Source: a virus
Lineage: Duplodnaviria > Caudoviricetes
DNA: 34,239 bases
Virus record (IMG/VR): IMGVR_UViG_3300027819_000040
Span: 1-34,239 of that record
Reading direction: 5' to 3' (one strand)
Numbering within the stretch: the stretch's first letter is position 1; each line of letters opens with the position of its first letter. The notes under the pieces were generated by a model. The model did not search any database. It was not told the DNA's origin and saw only the letters and a list, made by a program, of their open reading frames with translations. Shown here in pieces: positions 1,454 to 22,997 of this stretch. The translations under genes were made by a program, and so were the position numbers.

Positions 1454-1876
1454 TCAGAGACCTAGCGCTGCTTTCTCGACGCGTCCCCACTCCCGGCACT
1501 CTTCGACGAACGCATTGTACGCCGCGGACTCCGGACTCGGCGCCAGGCGCAGCATCTTCAGTTCGTCCGGGATACTGTAGCGCGCGCCGATCTTCTGCCG
1601 CACGCGCTCATTGATGAGTCGCACGTGCGGGCTTGCAAGTTTCAACTCGGCGCGCAGGGCGTCGCTGAGGTTCACGGGGGCGATGCTCTGCGCGATCTCG
1701 CCGGGCTGTGCCATCGGGAGCACAGCGCCGTCCGGCAGGCTGACATACGTCAGGCCGTCACTCAGCGTGGCGAGCTCCGTGCCGAGCGTGCCGTGCGACG
1801 CAGGGTCTTCAGGCAAGCGCAGCGTGCGCGTGATCTCGGTGGTGATATGCTGGCGGTAGCTGACGATAGACGGCAT
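1454..1876 (-). CDS. Hypothetical protein downstream of the DGR RT, possibly a tail fibre assembly chaperone
   Basis: GAGGA SD before MPSIVSY; overlaps the RT 3' end by 68 nt; helical C-terminus YSIPDELK...YNAFVEECREWG. Confidence 0.6.
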   Translation of the reverse strand: MPSIVSYRQHITTEITRTLRLPEDPASHGTLGTELATLSDGLTYVSLPDGAVLPMAQPGEIAQSIAPVNLSDALRAELKLASPHVRLINERVRQKIGARYSIPDELKMLRLAPSPESAAYNAFVEECREWGRVEKAALGL

Positions 1877-2828
1877 AGTGCTGGTCCTCGGTGGATCGCA
1901 GGAGGGAACGGAGGGAGTGGGTGCGGCGGGCATGGCCGAGCAGGGAGGCCGCGCTTTCGAGGTCGGCGCGGCGCACGGCCCGGCGGTAGGTGCGGAGCGC
2001 GCGGGAGCGGATGAAGCGCTTGTCCGCCCAGGTGCGGTAGCCGACGAAGTTCAGGCCGCGGCTGACCGGGGCGATCGTGGATTTCGAGAGTTCGAGGTGG
2101 AGCGTGTCGCGCAGGAAGTCGATGATCTGCGCGCGGTACGTCAGGGCCTCGTCGCGCGAAAGGCCGAACAGCACGAAGTCATCGACGTAGCGTGCGTAGG
2201 TGCGCACGCGGAGCTCGCGCTTGACGAAGTGATCGAGCGGGTTGAGGTAGATCAGGGCGTACAGCTGGGACAGCAGATTGCCGATGGGGACGCCGCGCGG
2301 CTCGCCGTGATCGGCGAAGGCCATGAGCAGCGCCATCAGCCGCGCATCCTTGACCTTCCGCGCGAGCAGCTGCTGCAGGACGGGACGGTCGATGCGGTAG
2401 AAGAACTTCCGGATGTCGAGTTTCAGGGTGTAGCTGCCCGCCGGGGCCTGCTGCAGCGCGGCCTGGGCGTAATCGGCGGCGGCATGCGTGCCGTATCCCA
2501 CGCGACAGGCAAACGACTGGTCAATGAAGGTCGCGCCGAAGATCGGGCCGATGACCGCGTAGATGGCGTGCTGCACCACGCAGTCGCGGAAGGCCGGCGC
2601 GTAGATGATGCGCGGCTTCGGCTCGTGCACCATGAAGGTGTAGTAGGGCCGCGGCTGGTAGGTGCCCGCATGCAGCTCGTGGTGCAGGCGCTCGAGCTGT
2701 GACCCGAGGGAGCGCTCGAACATGTGACAGGCGCGCCGCCCGCGCTTGCTCTGCGCCGCCGCGTAGAATGCGGCGAGCAGGGCCTCGCGCGTGAAGGCGC
2801 GGTCGAACAGGTGGCCATGGCGCTTCAC
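1809..2828 (-). CDS. DGR reverse transcriptase
   Basis: LKLDIRKFF, GVPIGNLLSQ (DGR-type SQ), YARYVDDF catalytic motif, LNFVGY; adjacent to TR and avd. Confidence 0.97.
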   Translation of the reverse strand: MKRHGHLFDRAFTREALLAAFYAAAQSKRGRRACHMFERSLGSQLERLHHELHAGTYQPRPYYTFMVHEPKPRIIYAPAFRDCVVQHAIYAVIGPIFGATFIDQSFACRVGYGTHAAADYAQAALQQAPAGSYTLKLDIRKFFYRIDRPVLQQLLARKVKDARLMALLMAFADHGEPRGVPIGNLLSQLYALIYLNPLDHFVKRELRVRTYARYVDDFVLFGLSRDEALTYRAQIIDFLRDTLHLELSKSTIAPVSRGLNFVGYRTWADKRFIRSRALRTYRRAVRRADLESAASLLGHARRTHSLRSLLRSTEDQHYAVYRQLPPAYHHRDHAHAALA

Positions 2829-3027
2829 GCCGCCACCCCATTCACGTGCGGCGCCTGACGTTCGCGCCGAGTGGGGGCGCCCGCGCGGCTGATGCTACTG
2901 GAAAGGCGCCGTCCCACCGATTTCGCCGACGTGGCGCCGTAAGTGCTGCGCTCGCCGCACCGGAAACCATCTCCCTTGGCTCCACCGTCGCCTGGCCGTG
3001 CGCCGCGTGGCGTTCGAGGTGTGGCCG

Positions 3028-3145
3028 AGTCCGCCCGGAACCCCACGTTGTTGTTGGAGTTGCCGCGCACATTGTTCAGATTGAGCGTCCAGGCGCCCGC
3101 GTTGCTCGCGTTCGTCCAGTTGCCACCCGCAATCGGACACATGCT
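3028..3145 (-). repeat. DGR template repeat (TR)
   Basis: 118-bp ungapped copy of 3631-3748; 10 mismatches, all at TR adenines on the minus strand; 10 AAY codons. Confidence 0.96.
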
Positions 3146-3572
3146 AAGATGCCTCCCGTCCTGCTGAGTGCTCGGCCTTCCGTTCGTCTTTCGCGCGGTC
3201 GGCGAGAATCCATCCGCCGATCATGCGACCCAGCTCATCCACCAGCCGCGACAGCGCGAGATAGCGGTGCGCCGCGCGTTTCTTGTCGGTGTCGTGCGTG
3301 CCGTCCTTGAAGCCGAAGTAGCCCAGCTCGTGCGCCAGTCGGGTGAGCATGCGCAGCTGTTCGTGCCGGATATCGAGCTGCGTGAGCGTCGTTTTCTTGT
3401 GGTACCGTTTCTGGCACTCGACGATGAGGGCGTACACGTCGTAGGCGGCACGCCGGAGTTCTAGGGCCAGTCCATACTTTTCCGCCTTGGGGAAGTGGTT
3501 GAGGTAGATGGTGAGCAGCTTCGCGAACTCCATGAACTTCCGATCCAGCTGTGCTTCTGAGTGAATGCCCAT
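3144..3572 (-). CDS. avd: DGR accessory variability determinant (four-helix bundle)
   Basis: 142-aa basic helical protein (FPKAEKYGLALELRR...LDIRHEQLR...ELGRMIGGW) between target and TR. Confidence 0.92.
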   Translation of the reverse strand: MGIHSEAQLDRKFMEFAKLLTIYLNHFPKAEKYGLALELRRAAYDVYALIVECQKRYHKKTTLTQLDIRHEQLRMLTRLAHELGYFGFKDGTHDTDKKRAAHRYLALSRLVDELGRMIGGWILADRAKDERKAEHSAGREAS

Positions 3573-3595
3573 AGGTCCGTGTGGTGAGCGTCCTC

Positions 3596-3619
3596 GCCCC
3601 GTCGCTATCGCTCAGGGGC
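3596..3619 (-). promoter_or_regulatory. Hairpin immediately after the VR and stop codon, candidate DGR target-recognition element
   Basis: GCCCC-TGA-GC-GATA-GC-GAC-GGGGC directly after the target stop; absent after TR. Confidence 0.55.
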
Positions 3620-5125
3620 TCAGAGATACAAGGCCGCCCGGAACCCCACGTCGTAGTTGGAGTTGCCGCGCACATTGGCCAGATTGAGCGTCCAGGCGCC
3701 CGCGTAGCCCGCGTCCGCCCAGTTGCCACCCGCAATCGGACACAGGCTGGCGGGCTGATAATCCCAGAGCCCGTCATTGCCGAACGGGTTGGTGCCACCG
3801 ACGCCACCGACCAGCGGAACGCCGAGGCCCGCCGCCTGCCAGGCGAGTCCGGTCGTGGCCTCGCTGAACACCTGCGCGGCGTTGCCGTAGTACTTGAGGG
3901 TGCTGCTGGCAAGCAGCGCCCCGTAGGTCGCACCCAGCTCCTCGTAGTCCGCGGCGAGCAGCTGCGCGGCGGTGCCCCAGAGGTCATGCGCGGCCCCGCC
4001 GGCGCCCGCCGTCTGGTCCTTCATGCGCGCACTCGTCTTCAGGACGTAGTACTTCGCCGTGTCGCTCGCGACCGTGAGCCCAGGCGAGATCTCCCAGATG
4101 TTGCCGTTCAGATCGCAGACGCCGCAGTTCTGGCCGTTGTGTGTGGTGCGGGCGAAGAGGTTCGCAGAGCCCGTCTTGCCGCAGTTGGTCGCGGAGCCGT
4201 CCGCGACATACAAAATGCCGGCGTCGTTTGCGTCACCCAGGGCATTGTTATTGTTGCCCTTCGGGAAGTTGATGACGCCAGCGCCGTCGTACCACGCGTT
4301 CCACGCCGTGGACGTGCTCTCCTGCGCGTGTGCACGAGAGATCAGGGCTAGTGCGGCGCGCTGGAAGTGTGGGGCCGGGAAGAAGTTCGCGCCGCGCGTC
4401 TTGGCGGCGGCGATGCAGCCATAGTAGAAGTCGGCCGGCGCGCCCGTCAGCGAGGCGAAGTTCGTGTTGGCAAGGCCGCCGCGCAATGCGCTGGTGAGCG
4501 GAACGCCGTTCTTCAGGCTGCTGGCGGTCCCGGCGTTGTTGCTGGGCTGGTATTTGTCGTGGAAGAAACCCGGCTGCACGACGCCGTTGTCGTAAAATGC
4601 CCGATGCAGCGCATAGCCAGCGGCATTCGCGGCCGCAACCGATGCAAAGTAAGAAAACGGCTTGATACTCACCACGTTGACCGAGAGGCCGTTGGCGCCG
4701 GTGCCGTACTTGTAATAGAAGGCTGGGATCCACACCATCACCGAGCCGTCGGGGTAGGTGTAGTTGCCGAAGTTGTCGCTATACGGGTCCGCCGTTCCAC
4801 TCATGGCCGTCATGCCGCTTGGCGGTGCGAGGCAGACGCCGACGCCGAAGCCCGGAGCGCCAGGCGTGCCGATGCCATCCTGCCCCCACGGCGTACTGAC
4901 CCACTGCGTGCCATCTGAGCGGAGGATATTGCCCGCGGCGCCGGGGGTGACACCATCCACTGCGGCGACGGAGGCGAGTTGCGCGGCGATCTCCGCTAGG
5001 AAGTCCGTGAAGATTTGATCCGGAAATAGCGGGGAGCCGCTCACCCCTTTCTGCGCATAGCCATAGCCATTCGCTGCCAGAAAGTCGGCAGCCGTGTAGG
5101 TGCGTCCGTTGAGCGTGACGGGCAT
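3620..5125 (-). CDS. DGR target protein, Mtd-like receptor-binding tail protein with probable C-type-lectin-fold C-terminus
   Basis: VR at the extreme 3' end; DLNGNIWE and GGNW...VGFRAA motifs; last gene of the tail module. Confidence 0.9.
   Translation of the reverse strand: MPVTLNGRTYTAADFLAANGYGYAQKGVSGSPLFPDQIFTDFLAEIAAQLASVAAVDGVTPGAAGNILRSDGTQWVSTPWGQDGIGTPGAPGFGVGVCLAPPSGMTAMSGTADPYSDNFGNYTYPDGSVMVWIPAFYYKYGTGANGLSVNVVSIKPFSYFASVAAANAAGYALHRAFYDNGVVQPGFFHDKYQPSNNAGTASSLKNGVPLTSALRGGLANTNFASLTGAPADFYYGCIAAAKTRGANFFPAPHFQRAALALISRAHAQESTSTAWNAWYDGAGVINFPKGNNNNALGDANDAGILYVADGSATNCGKTGSANLFARTTHNGQNCGVCDLNGNIWEISPGLTVASDTAKYYVLKTSARMKDQTAGAGGAAHDLWGTAAQLLAADYEELGATYGALLASSTLKYYGNAAQVFSEATTGLAWQAAGLGVPLVGGVGGTNPFGNDGLWDYQPASLCPIAGGNWADAGYAGAWTLNLANVRGNSNYDVGFRAALYL
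3631..3748 (-). repeat. DGR variable repeat (VR)
   Basis: Encodes SLCPIAGGNWADAGYAGAWTLNLANVRGNSNYDVGFRAA versus TR SMCPIAGGNWTNASNAGAWTLNLNNVRGNSNNNVGFRAD. Confidence 0.96.
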
Positions 5126-17758: not shown

Positions 17759-18808
17759 CTAGACCGTCACGAGCGTGTCGACCACGTACGTCTTCTGCTC
17801 GTCGGGGAGCGCCAGCGCGTTCTGCTGCGCCTCGATGAGCAGCGTCTTGCCGTCGTTCTTCTCGCTGCGGAAGATCACGACGCCGTTCGCGAGCGACCGG
17901 TTGGCGCCCTGGAGGAAGTCGTACGCGCGCACGACCGGCGCGACGTGCGTGTTCCCGACGACGCCCGACTGCGGCTGGAAGGCGATCTTGCCCGCCGGCA
18001 CGTAGTTCGCCGACGCGTGGGCGCTGCCGCCGTCCGTCGGCGCGTGGTAGGTGCGCTCGTCGATGACCAGCGTCACCTCGGGGAAGCCCTCTTCGCGGAT
18101 GCGATCCTGTAGCGTCGAGAACGTCGGACGCAGGCCGTTCGGCCCGTCCGGCGCATCGGCGATGATCTCGCGCACGACGGCGCGGCGCGTGCGCACGGCG
18201 CCTATCGCGCCCATCTTCGTCTGCGCCGCCTGCAGCGCGATGAGGAAGTTGTCGTACGCGTCCTGCCCGGCGTCCGACCAGATCGTGCCGGCGGTGATGT
18301 ACGACGTCGCCGCATCGAAGCCGAGCGCGACCGTCACCGTGACGCCGGTCTTCGGGTCCATGACGGTGATCTGGCCGTTGAACCACGCCTCGAAGGCCTC
18401 GACCTCGAGCTGGCGCTCGCTGGCATCGGCGAGGCGCTGCGGCCACGTGTTCAGGTCGCCGATCACGCCGCGGCGAAGGAGTTCCTGCACGCCGCTCTCG
18501 CCAAAGAGCTGCAGCATGCGCTCGTCGATGTGGTGCGTCGGATTGATCGGCACCATCTCGAAGTTCTGCGCGGGGCCCAGCTTCTCCGGGATCTCGCGGC
18601 CCTGCGCGTTCCACTCGCGCCGCCCGCCGATGGGACGGAAGTCGACGGTGGTGATGCTGGACAGCTTGATGGAGTCGGTGGGGACGCGCGGGAAGATGGC
18701 GCGGTAGCGCAGGTCGAGCGGGTTCTCGGCCAACCGGGTGGCTTCACGGATGGTGAGGTTCGCCGGCGTCAGCGAGGCGATGGAGTCGAGGAAGCTGAAG
18801 AGTGCCAT
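17759..18808 (-). CDS. Major capsid protein (HK97 fold, lambda gpE-like)
   Basis: 349 aa after the decoration gene; E.EAFEAWFNGQI, V..GF, TWS-like (TIWSD) and LP motifs typical of the capsid E family. Confidence 0.88.
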   Translation of the reverse strand: MALFSFLDSIASLTPANLTIREATRLAENPLDLRYRAIFPRVPTDSIKLSSITTVDFRPIGGRREWNAQGREIPEKLGPAQNFEMVPINPTHHIDERMLQLFGESGVQELLRRGVIGDLNTWPQRLADASERQLEVEAFEAWFNGQITVMDPKTGVTVTVALGFDAATSYITAGTIWSDAGQDAYDNFLIALQAAQTKMGAIGAVRTRRAVVREIIADAPDGPNGLRPTFSTLQDRIREEGFPEVTLVIDERTYHAPTDGGSAHASANYVPAGKIAFQPQSGVVGNTHVAPVVRAYDFLQGANRSLANGVVIFRSEKNDGKTLLIEAQQNALALPDEQKTYVVDTLVTV

Positions 18809-18814
18809 GGTCGA

Positions 18815-19180
18815 TTACACCAGGTTGAAGCGCTTCGCCAGCGCGAGCGACGCCAGTTCGTTGGCGTCGAGCGCACGGCCGAGGTTGTCCTCGATCGCCT
18901 GCTTGTTGAGCGAGCCCGAGATGATGCAGTTGCCGAAGTGATCGGCGGCGCCGAGATGCACCGGCTCGGGGCCGATGACCCCGAAGACCACATCCGTCAG
19001 CCCGGTGCACGGGACGCCGGTCGCGAGGATCGGCAGTCCGACCGGCAGCGTGCCGTTGGCGTCATCGACGCCGGTGAGCTCTGAGACATCGAGCTTCACT
19101 TGGTGGACCTGACATTCACCGACGCGGATGTCGCTGTACGCGACCCCGGCGGCTGCGACCTGCGTAACCGAAATGGGCAT
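18815..19180 (-). CDS. Head decoration protein
   Basis: Start reassigned to MPISVTQ (GGAG SD); 121 aa, TLPVGLPI...FGVI; immediately upstream of the capsid gene. Confidence 0.75.
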   Translation of the reverse strand: MPISVTQVAAAGVAYSDIRVGECQVHQVKLDVSELTGVDDANGTLPVGLPILATGVPCTGLTDVVFGVIGPEPVHLGAADHFGNCIISGSLNKQAIEDNLGRALDANELASLALAKRFNLV

Positions 19181-19211
19181 GACCCTGCTCCGTGAAGGGG
19201 ATGAAAGCCGA

Positions 19212-19431
19212 ACCGGGGGGCCGCGCCCAGACGAGACGCCACGCGTGGCGTTCGTTGCTGAGTGCGACCCCCCGGCATCGCGCTGAGGGTGCCGTCGTTG
19301 GCGCATCGCGCGCCGACGGGGCGTTCTGTCTATGTCCGTGTGGCCTCGCGCCACACCCTGCGGTTCCTGCCTTGCGCGGCCTCGCGCCGCGTCCGTCTGC
19401 CTGCGGGTGCCAGACACATCGCGCGTCCGGC
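19212..19431 (-). ncRNA. Structured RNA element: five hairpins with GCGA(G/U) pentaloops plus a long GC-rich hairpin
   Basis: Loops start at 19277, 19305, 19345, 19381 and 19418; GCGCGAKG invariant while stems differ; long hairpin at 19213-19275. Confidence 0.65.
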
Positions 19432-19444
19432 CTGACTTCACCTA

Positions 19445-19761
19445 TGGAGCTGCGGGGAGTCGAACCCCGGTCCAGCGCAGCTATTCTTCACCGGTTCTAC
19501 GTGCGTAGACGGTTGCGCCGTCAGCGTCTTGCGGTCCTTCAGGGGTGCCGGTTCCCCGTCACCCTCCACCACTCACGCAGCCATCTGGACAGGCGTGAGA
19601 CTGTTCCTGCGGACCTGCATGGGCTGGCGCGCTGACCGAGCCGCCTTCCAACCGTCGAGCGAGACCGTCGATGAGTTCGCGGTTCTTGTGTGGGACTGTG
19701 AGCCCGTCCCTCTCTGCGCGCACCGGTGCATTTCACAACGCTGTCGAAACCAGTCAGCCCC
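19445..19761 (-). ncRNA. ssrA: Phage-encoded tmRNA, 317 nt, CCA not encoded
   Basis: 5' GGGGCTGACTGGTTTCGAC and 3' GGACCGGGGTTCGACTCCCCGCAGCTCCA; 7-bp acceptor stem with G3:U and discriminator A; T-arm; internal reading frame AN...MAA*. Confidence 0.93.
19573..19680 (-). other. tmRNA tag reading frame ANSSTVSLDGWKAARSARQPMQVRRNSLTPVQMAA*
   Basis: GCG AAC resume-like codons at nt 82 of the RNA; ends Ala-Ala; stop lies in the CTCACGC/GCGTGAG helix; resume codon is inferred. Confidence 0.7.
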
Positions 19762-19776
19762 CAACCCTTCGTTTCC

Positions 19777-20475
19777 CTACTTGAACGCCAGCGCGTTCTG
19801 CTCTTTCCCCTGCTTCTGCACGGCCGCGGCGGCCTTGCCCGCGGCGACGGGATCGTATGCGGAGCCACTGCCACCACCACCGAGATCCGGATCCGCGCCC
19901 GATCCACCGGCATCGGCGCCGCCATAGTAGAACGGCGCTTCGGTCTTGTACGTCTTCGACAGGAAGTCCTCGATCGCCTCCGACGTGACGTTGCCCGCCG
20001 CGTCCTTGACCACGATCGTCTTGTTGTCGTCGGCCAGATCCGTGCGGATCATCAGATCCAGCATCGCCTTCGGCAGGCGCTTCTCGAGAATGCCATGCTT
20101 CAGCGCGAGCGCAGACACCTTGTCCTGATGCTGCAGCTTGCGATTCTCGGCCTTCAGCTTCGCGTTCTCGTCCTCGAGTGGCTTGCGCGCCTTCGCCTCG
20201 TCGTCCTTGATCTTCTGCAGCTCCGTGGCCGAGATGCCCTTCGCTGCGGCGTCCGCCGCCCGCTTGAGATCGTCGCGTTCCCGCTCAGCCGCATCGGCCC
20301 GTTCCTTCTCCGCCTTGCGCGCCGTGCGCTCCTTCTCCAGGGCGGCCTTGCCGGCATCGCCGAGCGCCGGGTCGGCGGCCTGCGCCTTCGGATGGTACTT
20401 GCCGTCCTTCAGCTCGTATTCAGAGCGGAAGGCCTCTGGGATCGCGTCCTGCGTATCAAAGACGGGCAGCGGCAT
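19777..20475 (-). CDS. Capsid scaffolding protein
   Basis: Start MPLPVFD; IPEAFRSEYELKDGKY, ALEKERTARK coiled coil, APFYY plus Gly-rich tail. Confidence 0.85.
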   Translation of the reverse strand: MPLPVFDTQDAIPEAFRSEYELKDGKYHPKAQAADPALGDAGKAALEKERTARKAEKERADAAERERDDLKRAADAAAKGISATELQKIKDDEAKARKPLEDENAKLKAENRKLQHQDKVSALALKHGILEKRLPKAMLDLMIRTDLADDNKTIVVKDAAGNVTSEAIEDFLSKTYKTEAPFYYGGADAGGSGADPDLGGGGSGSAYDPVAAGKAAAAVQKQGKEQNALAFK

Positions 20476-20605: not shown

Positions 20606-20637
20606 GCGAAACGCCCCATCCGAAGTGGACGGGGCGT
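20606..20637 (-). terminator. Probable intrinsic terminator
   Basis: 11-bp stem ACGCCCCGUCC/GGAUGGGGCGU with a short U-rich tail, downstream of the 20692-21045 gene. Confidence 0.55.
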
Positions 20638-20691: not shown

Positions 20692-21045
20692 TTACAATCG
20701 CAATCGGAATCCGAGCGCGTCTTCCACGGTGACGTTTGTCAGTGTAGGTCGGTTGCGTACGGCCCCATGCACGGCGGTCATCGCATGATCCGCACCGGCA
20801 TGGAGCGTCCAGGGCACCGATCGCTCAATCGAAGTGGCCACGACGAACGTCGCTGGCGCCGGCGCAGGGTCGCTGCGCTCGATCGCCACCTCCGACGTCA
20901 TGCTGGGCATGGCCGTGTGAAGGATCGGCGTGGAATGGTCGGCGCCGATGCCGAACTGAACCGGCCCCGCACGATTCGCCGGCAAGACCGCCAGGCAGCC
21001 GAGGATGAAGACGGCCAGCGCCATCAGTCGCATGAACACCCGCAT
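20692..21045 (-). CDS. Small exported or membrane protein (moron-like)
   Basis: GGAGG SD; signal-peptide-like N-terminus MRVFMRLMALAVFILGCLAVLPA; own promoter and terminator. Confidence 0.6.
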   Translation of the reverse strand: MRVFMRLMALAVFILGCLAVLPANRAGPVQFGIGADHSTPILHTAMPSMTSEVAIERSDPAPAPATFVVATSIERSVPWTLHAGADHAMTAVHGAVRNRPTLTNVTVEDALGFRLRL

Positions 21046-21092
21046 AGTGCGCCCTCCGTGAGTGTGGGTTCGCCTGCTCTGCTGACACGCGC

Positions 21093-21148
21093 ACGATAGG
21101 ATGCGCCGTCGTGGATGTCGAACCGGATGGCTGTAAGTTCTTCCGGCG
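21093..21148 (-). promoter_or_regulatory. Putative promoter, motif copy 2
   Basis: GGAAGAACTTACAGCCATCC, then TCGACA-17 nt-TATCGT. Confidence 0.7.
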
Positions 21149-21163
21149 CGTGCACGAGCAGCG

Positions 21164-22126
21164 CTACACACCAGCTCGTGAGACGAAGTACCGGTCGAGG
21201 CACCGACAATTCCAATCGCCCTCGCCGGCGCGCATCTGCCCGTTGCTGTACGGCTGGTCCGCCGGGACGATCTCGTTGTTCATCGCCAGATGCTCCTCTC
21301 GCTCGCGCTCATCGCCGATGCCGATCCACTGCTTCATCACCTGAAAGCCGTCGGGGATCACGCCCTTGTCCTTGGCATCATCCCACGCTATGGACTGCCC
21401 CTGCTTGAACGCATCGACGGTCAACTGTCGGCTGACGGTGACCGCGTTGTTCTCGATGGTCGCGTCCCGGTAGAGCGCCACGATCTTGTCGATGCGCGCC
21501 TCGCGCTCGGCCGGGGAGAGCTTTTCGAGCGCGCGCAGGCTGAATCGTTGGTCGAGGAGCGCACGCTGCGAGGCGGCGGCGAGCCGTCCTGTCGTCAGTT
21601 CCTCACGCAGGTTCGCCACGTAGTCCACCGCATGCGGCGGCAGGCCGATGGCGGCCTTGATCTCACGCACCGCCGAGCCCGATCCCAGCTTCTCGCGCAA
21701 GCTCTGCTCGACGAGGAGGCGCACGGTCTCCCGCACATCTGACTGGATCGTCTCCAGCGCGCTGGTCTCGATCGTGCGAATGGCCGTGATCACATTGGGT
21801 GAGAGATGGTCGAACGTCACCGCCAGAACGCCATCCACCTTGCCGCCGTTCGGCAGGTCGCGCGTGTGATAACGCACCGCATCGGCGAGGTTCTCCCGCA
21901 CCTGGGTGCGCACGGGAGAGAACGCGCGGTCGAACACCTCTGGCGTGAGGGCGGCCTGAATCGCGCCCACGACATCGCGACGCGCGATGATGCGCGCCAG
22001 TTCCGCCTCGGGGAGCGCGCGCCGCAGGATCTCGAACGCCAGCAACGTCGCGCGCGCGAGGTCGTTACTGCGCACCGCCACACGGCGGTTCACGCGCGCC
22101 CAGAACCGGAGTTGTGCGGCAGTCAT
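21164..22126 (-). CDS. Minor head morphogenesis protein (Mu gpF / SPP1 gp7-like)
   Basis: C-terminal KQW...DERERE.H..MN...NCRC motif. Confidence 0.85.
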   Translation of the reverse strand: MTAAQLRFWARVNRRVAVRSNDLARATLLAFEILRRALPEAELARIIARRDVVGAIQAALTPEVFDRAFSPVRTQVRENLADAVRYHTRDLPNGGKVDGVLAVTFDHLSPNVITAIRTIETSALETIQSDVRETVRLLVEQSLREKLGSGSAVREIKAAIGLPPHAVDYVANLREELTTGRLAAASQRALLDQRFSLRALEKLSPAEREARIDKIVALYRDATIENNAVTVSRQLTVDAFKQGQSIAWDDAKDKGVIPDGFQVMKQWIGIGDEREREEHLAMNNEIVPADQPYSNGQMRAGEGDWNCRCLDRYFVSRAGV

Positions 22127-22587
22127 GTGGCGGCCCTCTCCTCGATCTGAGGCTCGTCATCGAAACAGAGCGTGTCCACTCCGTTGCCGCACGAGCTGGT
22201 GAACTTCGCGGCCAACGCAACGGCTTCGGCTGCATTCAGGCCAAGGTGCATCCCCGCGATGGCGAAGTCCCGGCCCGAGCCTTCGGCGAACTGCTTCTCC
22301 TCGACCGTCACGCCGTAGCCGTTCGACTCAATGCGCTCGATCCGGCCTCCTCGGTGGATGATGAGCAGGTAGGTCGCGTCGTCCTTATCCTGCTTCGGAT
22401 GCCGCTGCGGGTCTTTCCCGCTCCTCACCCAGTCCACGAGTTCCAACCCACGGCACAGCTCGCCGTGCACGCCGACGAGCATGTCCGGCCCGACCCGGAA
22501 GAGCTTGGTGCACGTGAAGTTCAGCCCGTAGGTGGTGCCGCGCTTGTCGGCGGCGAGGGTCTTGCCATCCCATGCGAGGACCGTCAT
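22123..22587 (-). CDS. HslV / proteasome-beta-like Ntn threonine peptidase
   Basis: N-terminal (M)TVLAWDG..LAADKRGT, conserved K in TKLFR, GSGRDFA..., A.EAV..A.K; start reassigned to put Thr first. Confidence 0.8.
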   Translation of the reverse strand: MTVLAWDGKTLAADKRGTTYGLNFTCTKLFRVGPDMLVGVHGELCRGLELVDWVRSGKDPQRHPKQDKDDATYLLIIHRGGRIERIESNGYGVTVEEKQFAEGSGRDFAIAGMHLGLNAAEAVALAAKFTSSCGNGVDTLCFDDEPQIEERAAT

Positions 22588-22607
22588 CGCGTCACTTCGC
22601 CAGTCGC

Positions 22608-22997
22608 TTAGCACTCATGCGTGCCGCCAGCGGTCACGTATCCGTGCCACTCACATCCGCCGATGAGTTTTACCGAGCACTGCCCCGGTCCGCAGAACGT
22701 GAGATCGTCGAGGCTCGTGGAGCCTTCGCTGATGAACCAGCGCCCCGGCCCCGGATTGATGTCATTCGGTACGGTCGGTGCATGACGCGGGTTCGCGAAC
22801 CAGCACAGCACGTAGTGCGCGCCCATGACCTTGCCGTCCTCGCTGCGCGGCTTCCCTTCTGCGCATTTCGGACACTGGAATTGCACGCCCTGTGCCTCGT
22901 CGATGCTCTCGACGTGTCGGTAGCCTTCATACTCGTGCTCGGCGTCCTTGCCGTGCCAGCCGCCTACGAAGTGACCATCCAGTTCACGAAGTCGCAT
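22608..22997 (-). CDS. Cys/His-rich hypothetical protein (DUF6527-like)
   Basis: FQCPKC...H...W...LTF..SV...C.WHGYV pattern; TGATG overlap with the portal stop. Confidence 0.6.
   Translation of the reverse strand: MRLRELDGHFVGGWHGKDAEHEYEGYRHVESIDEAQGVQFQCPKCAEGKPRSEDGKVMGAHYVLCWFANPRHAPTVPNDINPGPGRWFISEGSTSLDDLTFCGPGQCSVKLIGGCEWHGYVTAGGTHEC

Follow-up and report, generated by a model that had tools for sequence, protein, structure and literature searches.

Antitermination at boxB, a single hairpin found together with boxA, is processive. The CsrB/RsmZ sponges and the targets of CsrA present GGA in hairpin loops, and autoregulation by the scaffold of phage P22 has reportedly been cited since 1985. 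In ANTAR antitermination (EutV, NasR, AmiR), small hairpins stand in tandem, the last of them overlaps an intrinsic terminator and protein binding leads to read-through; the target loops are hexamers with A at position 1 and G at position 4 (PMC3369931, in excerpts). The N-boxB pair of phages lambda and P22 consists of a pentaloop hairpin, GNRNA in the loop and GNRA-like in fold, that is read by a basic α-helix (PMC12027372, in excerpts). Translation of the P22 scaffold gp8 is under the control of gp8 itself, by way of the N-terminal region of the protein (10.1101/2022.12.13.520362), and the passages of that work on autoregulation name no RNA target. Mutants of the 80alpha scaffold show a fall in capsid protein production, for which the authors favour misfolding over regulation (passages of PMC5744158). 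GP20-a (RF02991), GP20-b (RF03003) and six candidate RNAs, all upstream of GP20 genes, have been proposed as cis-regulators (passages of PMC10690425). In cluster K phages, the SAS/ESAS sites, with the 13-bp sequence GGGATAGGAGCCC, lie before non-structural genes and form no hairpin (PMC3203893, in part). The CGCAAYG family of rRNA pentaloops has a C-G closing pair, a G1-A4 pair and a variable fifth base (PMC9830547, in part). Here we describe a phage leader RNA that is real, conserved and uncatalogued and that, judging from its sequence and predicted folds, is probably an attenuator.

Five hairpins with a common loop precede the capsid genes

The window, which is the whole stretch of 34,239 nucleotides analysed here, carries on its minus strand the head genes in the order terminase, portal, MuF, scaffold, tmRNA, array, 121-aa gene and major capsid gene. 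The head scaffolding protein gene (19777..20475, 232 aa from its MPLP start), which encodes the candidate RNA reader, matches phrog_206 with an E value of 2.6e-13, and some homologues of the protein carry PF06810. The major capsid protein (17759..18808, minus strand; phrog_29, and PF03864 by precomputed assignment) has no match among cultured phages. Its relatives, of 74-80% identity, occur in two assemblies titled Gemmatimonadales and Gemmatimonadaceae, so that the host is probably a member of the Gemmatimonadota. The 121-aa product (18815..19180, minus strand) matches no family and from its position is probably a capsid decoration protein; its gene is the first that the leader would gate.

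Other genes of the window stand apart from this arrangement. An HslV-family peptidase gene (22123-22614, minus strand), also present in L016, lies between portal and MuF. A small membrane-type gene (20692-21171, minus strand) with a sigma70-like site at 21121-21093 is inserted between MuF and scaffold, and has no family match and no match in the relatives. A diversity-generating retroelement (1809-5125, minus strand) encodes Avd and a reverse transcriptase; it also has a short frame (2825-3142), probably the template repeat, with similarity to the C-terminal end of the tail protein encoded at 3620-5125.

Five minus-strand hairpins with GCGA(G/U) pentaloops separate the tmRNA from the 121-aa gene, with the loop G at 19422, 19385, 19349, 19309 and 19281 and loop-to-loop spacings of 37, 36, 40 and 28; the hairpins and spacings are those that a preliminary description of this DNA had reported. 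In the order of the RNA they are two extra hairpins with loops GCGAU (19409..19431) and GCGAG (19375..19391), a strong hairpin H1 with loop GCGAG (19338..19356), H2 with loop GCGAU (19291..19319), whose core is extended via a bulge, and the weak last hairpin H3 with loop GCGAU (19269..19289). The first four have perfect stems of 9, 6, 7 and 5 bp; that of H3 consists of 2 bp, an A-C mismatch and 5 bp. H1 is followed by a conserved single-stranded linker, GGACAUA (19331..19337) and then AAC. The RCAGR sequence previously noticed in the linkers is present in three of the four, but the linker that the relatives conserve is (G/A)CAUA...AAC.

Such a density of hairpins is not expected by chance. In the 261-nt intergenic region we observed four same-loop pentaloop hairpins with stems of at least 5 bp, while three or more were found in 0 of 5000 dinucleotide shuffles, so that in this check, which had been named beforehand, the array stood far above shuffled sequence. 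When stems of at least 3 bp were accepted, four same-loop hairpins, the observed number, arose in 3 of 5000 shuffles. None of the other 261-nt segments of the sequence contains three same-loop hairpins with stems of at least 5 bp. The overall folding energy of the region is ordinary (z = +1.19), and the signal of the array thus resides in the repeated loop, not in stability.

The loop differs from those of the described regulators. Like boxB, it is a phage pentaloop and is perhaps read by a basic helix; however, A5 is invariant in boxB, whereas the array loops have an invariant A4 and a variable fifth base that is mostly U, G or C. No boxA accompanies the array, the conserved linker (G/A)CAUA...AAC being unlike the boxA of P22, and several hairpins would act on one overlapping hairpin. 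No N-like antiterminator gene was matched among the 41 window proteins compared with PHROGs. The six-base A1/G4 pattern of ANTAR targets is absent from these five-base G-Y-G-A-N loops. In contrast to CsrB/RsmZ, all 10 leaders described below have loops of the type GCGA or GUGA, without GGA. A similar loop is that of CGCAAYG, one substitution away from C-GCGAY-G, although CGCAAYG is a structural motif and not a regulatory system. By analogy, the array loop probably folds as a GNRA loop with an extruded fifth base.

Comparison with catalogued RNAs gave no counterpart. The array matches no Rfam family at any threshold tried, in agreement with the preliminary description, which recognised no named family. 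RF02991 and RF03003 gave no match at the gathering score or at E <= 10, nor any in 20 related loci at E <= 1. The GP20 RNAs resemble the array in being structured RNAs beside a GP20-type gene, some homologues of our scaffold carrying the PF06810 domain, but they lie upstream of GP20, whereas the window array lies downstream of the scaffold gene. The arrays of cultured phages differ from SAS/ESAS in sequence, in forming hairpins and in preceding the scaffold gene. A full-text literature search, covering mostly papers free of subscription, found no description of a GYGAN leader motif. PMC12591593 contains no phage term, and a search for the motif in the main text of PMC5737381 gave no description. 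The passages and six supplementary files of PMC10690425 that were searched gave no match; its files 1, 2 and 4 may contain a candidate of this kind.

The last hairpin overlaps a long terminator-like hairpin

The 3' arm of H3 is also the 5' arm of a 65-nt hairpin of -50.9 kcal/mol (19212..19276, minus strand), a predicted terminator; H3, with its A-C mismatch, is a predicted antiterminator. A U-rich tail follows (19201..19211, minus strand), which is weak in the window phage (4 U in the first 8). The preliminary description had delimited the array to 19267..19431; its hairpins stand, but it missed the long hairpin overlapping the fifth of them, and because of this overlap and of the tail the element extends to about 19201.

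The same geometry recurs in all nine aligned leaders. In 9/9 of them the long hairpin begins 4-5 nt downstream of the G that opens the H3 loop, and thus uses the 3' arm of H3. It measures 56-75 nt, with energies of -35 to -54 kcal/mol, and 4-7 of the 8 bases that follow it are U; the lower value applies to two tails, that of the window being among the weakest. Keeping H3 closed costs 7.8-12.3 kcal/mol. The 11-bp base of the long hairpin is 93.9% paired with 20 double changes, a result reached in 0/500 shuffles. The predicted fold of L321, which had been held out, shows the same overlap, and with it the U-rich tail directly follows the stem in 10/10 leaders. As a control, we searched six leaders for a long helix with a U-rich tail, which was found after 0/18 upstream hairpins versus 6/6 last hairpins.

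This arrangement is close to that of ANTAR targets, where tandem hairpins with fixed loop bases also end with one that overlaps a terminator-like hairpin with a U tail (here 9/9 leaders and the held-out L321). It differs by its three to five hairpins, its conserved linker and its target, the phage head genes, and Pfam revealed no ANTAR-domain protein among 26 window proteins. We consider it likely, from these folds, that the leader is a terminator/antiterminator switch, that is, an attenuator, ahead of the decoration and capsid genes.

The long hairpin could alternatively be an RNase III-type processing or translation-coupling structure, the array setting the cleavage, stability or translation of the capsid mRNA. 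Such a role would suit its size of 56-75 nt, well beyond that of textbook terminators, its internal loops and the two tails with only 4 U in 8; it would also suit the arrays of other phages, most of which lack a terminator and abut start codons. A consensus terminator scanner did not call the long hairpin of the window. However, a U-rich tail comes directly after the stem in 10/10 leaders, and the GGAG ribosome site of the 121-aa gene (19188-19191) lies about 20 nt beyond the stem and outside it. We therefore regard a processing structure as unlikely and retain the attenuator.

A TTGAC-type sigma70-like promoter stands shortly before the array in 5/9 leaders; it is absent from the window, L004, L018 and L020. 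With several identical loops downstream, the transcript between promoter and terminator could itself be the product, a small RNA acting in trans as a decoy for a protein, as CsrB does. Yet the position before the head genes is fixed, the terminator fold would destroy the last site, the loops lack GGA and other arrays lie on start codons, which together render a decoy improbable.

Two further structures were noted. In L004, L017 and L018, the GCGA loop of H3 can be paired with a UCG from the U-rich tail, so that formation of the terminator would hide the H3 binding site. The window contains another terminator-like hairpin upstream of the scaffold gene (20607-20635, minus strand; tail UUUCG/UUUGUCG), which also occurs in L003, L020, L184 and L186 and lies just 3' of a TTGAC promoter in several relatives; the head operon may hold a second checkpoint there.

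The leader is conserved and covaries in related phages

Capsid-based scans retrieved 18 loci, one being the window's own phage. Seven of the other 17 were too short or cut for the scaffold-decoration interval and ten were readable. The array occupies this interval in 7/10 (L004, L007, L011, L012, L016, L017 and L018); in L003, four such hairpins are found before the scaffold gene instead, and L010 and L019 have no array. Pattern scans added L321 and one of two further matches, L020, which has the same scaffold family and leader but an unrelated capsid. Ten phages, the window phage and nine relatives, thus have a common layout made of optional extra hairpins, H1, the (G/A)CAUA...AAC linker, H2, H3, the long hairpin, the U-rich tail and a ribosome site, with three to five G-Y-G-A-N pentaloop hairpins per leader.

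Within the linker, CATA and AAC are invariant in 9/9 aligned leaders. H1 is paired in 49/49 cells of an alignment of seven sequences with 15 double-sided changes, which 0/500 shuffles reproduced; L011 and L016 were left out of it because their H1 has an internal loop. The covariation claimed earlier from the window alone is thereby borne out among relatives. H3 covaries weakly, being 90.7% paired with 3 double changes, a pairing reached by 15/500 shuffles, and five of nine leaders have the A-C mismatch. A close rhizosphere relative shows 1/184 differences over 19167-19350 against 15/382 in the next gene, on single low-depth contigs; in sequencing run X3, 19351-19445 is covered by no contig.

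The nearly palindromic, repeated 9-nt core could also suggest a DNA-level feature such as operator sites or cruciforms. This is hardly credible, since the stems vary freely yet stay paired, G-U pairs included, the U tail is strand-specific and a start codon lies within the loop in other phages. The covariation and the lack of an Rfam match instead support the proposal of the preliminary description that the array is a multivalent protein-binding RNA.

A covariance model built from nine leaders gave 83.6 bits for the held-out L321. In 150 other genomes of the host class it detected no further copy. Scans of viral contigs with single proteins gave no capsid relative and one weak scaffold match without array, and a scan with the scaffold alignment gave no match because the alignment has no conserved stretch. 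By blastn against cultured phages the leader gave only 25-nt matches with E about 3. A relaxed ACATA pattern hit 27 loci, but 0/26 parsed ones had the leader layout and these hits were discarded as noise. A loose pattern of two cores matched many sites in two host genomes, and these sites form no part of the results given here.

The tmRNA gene upstream of the array (19442..19761, minus strand) scores 81.9 bits with the RF00023 covariance model, against a gathering threshold of 47; ARAGORN made no call at this position. CCA is not encoded. The tag frame, of 35 residues and ending in MAA, starts at 19680 (19573-19680, minus strand), whereas nine Gemmatimonadota tmRNAs have 9-residue ANxxLALAA tags; the close relative has three base changes within this frame, none introducing a stop. 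An exact 142-nt match inside the tmRNA was found in sequencing run X4, which is probably DNA, and it plays no part in our reading. Scanning 17 loci with Rfam revealed a tmRNA only in L008, the window's own phage, which makes the gene a lineage-specific insertion. Excision of the tmRNA, which had been supposed to free the leader, is therefore not a necessary step, as the relatives scanned have no tmRNA and 5/9 aligned leaders have their own promoter. In the window phage, 10-13 nt separate the end of the tmRNA from the first hairpin, and processing of the tmRNA may thus create the 5' end of the leader. A tRNA gene directly precedes a scaffold-leader array in two unrelated phages, in parallel with the tmRNA here: tRNA-Met in L018 (L018:3593-3665, two-hairpin array) and tRNA-Trp in Hestia (L368:123-194).

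The same loops cover scaffold start codons in other phages

A scan for three GCGYGATGC cores returned at least 120 loci (about 250 estimated), 60 of which were dropped as pentapeptide-repeat coding by a pattern filter of our own. Among the matches listed, 26 of the 60 loci kept precede one redundant capsid family. The 26 downstream frames chosen comprised 9 major capsid proteins, 2 scaffolds, 4 with another match or one of unknown function and 11 without match. From a second, generic scan (119 loci, 82 dropped by the same filter) we examined 25 arrays. In 12 of them, a ribosome site is followed by an AUG that lies in the last loop and opens a long frame, and 9 of 11 tested frames of this kind encode scaffolds. 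Indeed, the annotated scaffold AUG of mycobacteriophages Mufasa and SamScheppers lies within the last loop. Among the arrays of the second scan, the long overlapping helix with its U-rich tail was seen only in L275, from the same contig as L020, and in L321. The same loop is thus wired in two ways, over the scaffold AUG elsewhere and over a terminator-like hairpin here.

Variants of the loop, GGGAU/GGGAC and G(U/A)GAU, occur before scaffold genes in L365 (Faja), L368 (Hestia) and L187. In Faja and Hestia, where the hairpins are GGGAU and G(U/A)GAU and one of them covers the AUG, the scaffold segment is a variant too, which may reflect co-variation of loop and protein. A different conserved hairpin (UUCCGC...CUCGGCGG) is located before the capsid gene, in the scaffold-capsid interval of L349-L354 (cluster K relatives); Mufasa and most relatives have it irrespective of a GYGAN array.

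A scaffold motif accompanies the array

Residues 38-57 of the window scaffold (20305..20364, minus strand) carry the motif AL-x-x-ER-x-x-RK, a candidate RNA-binding segment at the start of a predicted helix 40-78. Across scaffolds the common pattern is [ATS][LI]-x-x-E[RK], again at the start of a long predicted helix. It is present in 8/8 readable scaffolds of array-bearing clade members versus 0/2 of array-less ones, and in 15/18 scaffolds below other arrays (missing in L029, L130 and L340). Above capsid-leader arrays, 11/16 frames have it, the frame extracted being not scaffold-like in 4 of the 5 misses. Scaffold homologues contain the motif in 54/66 cases, compared with 0/120 capsid homologues.

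In a discovery set of nine cultured actinophages, C-G-closed GYGAN hairpins were found in 3/3 phages with the motif and 0/6 without; Guillsminger has one GYGAN loop, closed by U-G, and Shadow1 two weak ones not closed by C-G. A new set of 11 actinophages was chosen by coverage of the motif region among the tblastn matches listed (45 of 225). Hairpins were present in 4/5 with the motif (Gibbous, TPA4, SweatNTears and E6, not Mysterium) and in 1/6 without (Hestia), an association that is not significant alone (Fisher p = 0.08). TM4 and Baehexic, expected to be positive by coverage, have neither motif nor hairpins. With the loose pattern, the motif occurs without arrays in L183, L184 and Mysterium, and tblastn with the motif region (39 residues) gave only 13 near-identical records.

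The relatives compared in this association are not independent. Since the leader adjoins the region encoding the scaffold N-terminus, linkage could explain part of it; the association persists, however, both with the array upstream of the motif and with the array about 600 nt downstream of it, for which linkage alone is a less good explanation. Compared with the P22 N helix the motif has less basic character, and it might be no more than the start of a coiled coil. A structure model of the scaffold (pTM 0.43) had no PDB match at E <= 0.001, and Atlas matches for its N-terminal 45 residues were all below 0.9. P22 gp8 is comparable as a scaffold whose N-terminal region mediates control of its own translation, but the AL-x-x-ER motif is absent from it and the region around its start (P22 3700-4000) contains no G-N-G-A-N hairpin.

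The same switch might have another reader, either a host protein that is conserved, for instance a Nus factor or a ribosomal protein, or a small phage regulator encoded in the approximately 17 kb of the phage beyond the window. The occurrence of one loop with several scaffold families and hosts is in keeping with this, as is its distance of a single base from the rRNA family CGCAAYG (PMC9830547, in part). However, no ANTAR, CsrA, NusG or Com match was found among the 41 (PHROGs) and 26 (Pfam) window proteins, and no zinc-ribbon gene of the Com type lies beside the array, which led us to reject a Com-like or CsrA-like neighbour. Phages recorded on M. smegmatis vary in the presence of the array, in step with the scaffold motif, and the leader model found no new copy in the 150 host-class genomes. 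Another reader thus appears rather unlikely. If the leader is an attenuator, we think that the scaffold probably reads it, given how the motif is distributed; L020, which retains this scaffold family and the leader beside an unrelated capsid, favours the same view.

Proposed mechanism

Starting from the observed hairpins, covariation, overlap, position and statistical link to the scaffold motif, we tentatively propose, with the balance close to even, that the array is the front half of a leader RNA acting as a terminator/antiterminator switch, probably flipped to read-through by free scaffold. Transcription entering the leader would stop by default at the long hairpin. Unassembled scaffold would load through its AL-x-x-ER helix on the strong upstream hairpins, keep the weak H3 closed and so block the base of the terminator, whereupon the decoration and capsid genes would be transcribed. 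As capsid protein uses up free scaffold, the switch would fall back to termination. The drop in capsid protein in 80alpha scaffold mutants would be in line with such a switch, although misfolding is the explanation preferred by those authors. In phages with hairpins over the scaffold start, the same recognition would repress scaffold translation, and both wirings together would balance scaffold against capsid. In the literature we found no scaffold reported to act on a terminator that precedes capsid genes. Of the functions suggested in the preliminary description, antitermination and scaffold autoregulation both fit, in combination, while a CsrB-like sponge is unlikely because the array loops contain no GGA.

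Mufasa, with hairpins and motif, and TM4, with neither, are both placed in Timquatrovirus; with this natural pair, a direct test of the idea is possible in Mycobacterium smegmatis.

There is so far little explanation of the way in which tailed phages keep scaffold and capsid protein in balance. The present finding contributes a defined motif in RNA, a stretch of 20 residues as its candidate reader and two modes of wiring, as operator and as attenuator. It is conceivable, though we lean slightly against so broad a statement on sequence comparisons, that scaffolds of many unrelated tailed phages are moonlighting RNA regulators whose AL-x-x-ER helix reads G-Y-G-A-N arrays, either as an operator at the scaffold start or as an antiterminator of the capsid genes, feeding assembly back on translation and transcription. 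If this is true, a structural assembly chaperone would double as a transcription antiterminator, and the compact new peptide-hairpin pair would be usable as a tool.
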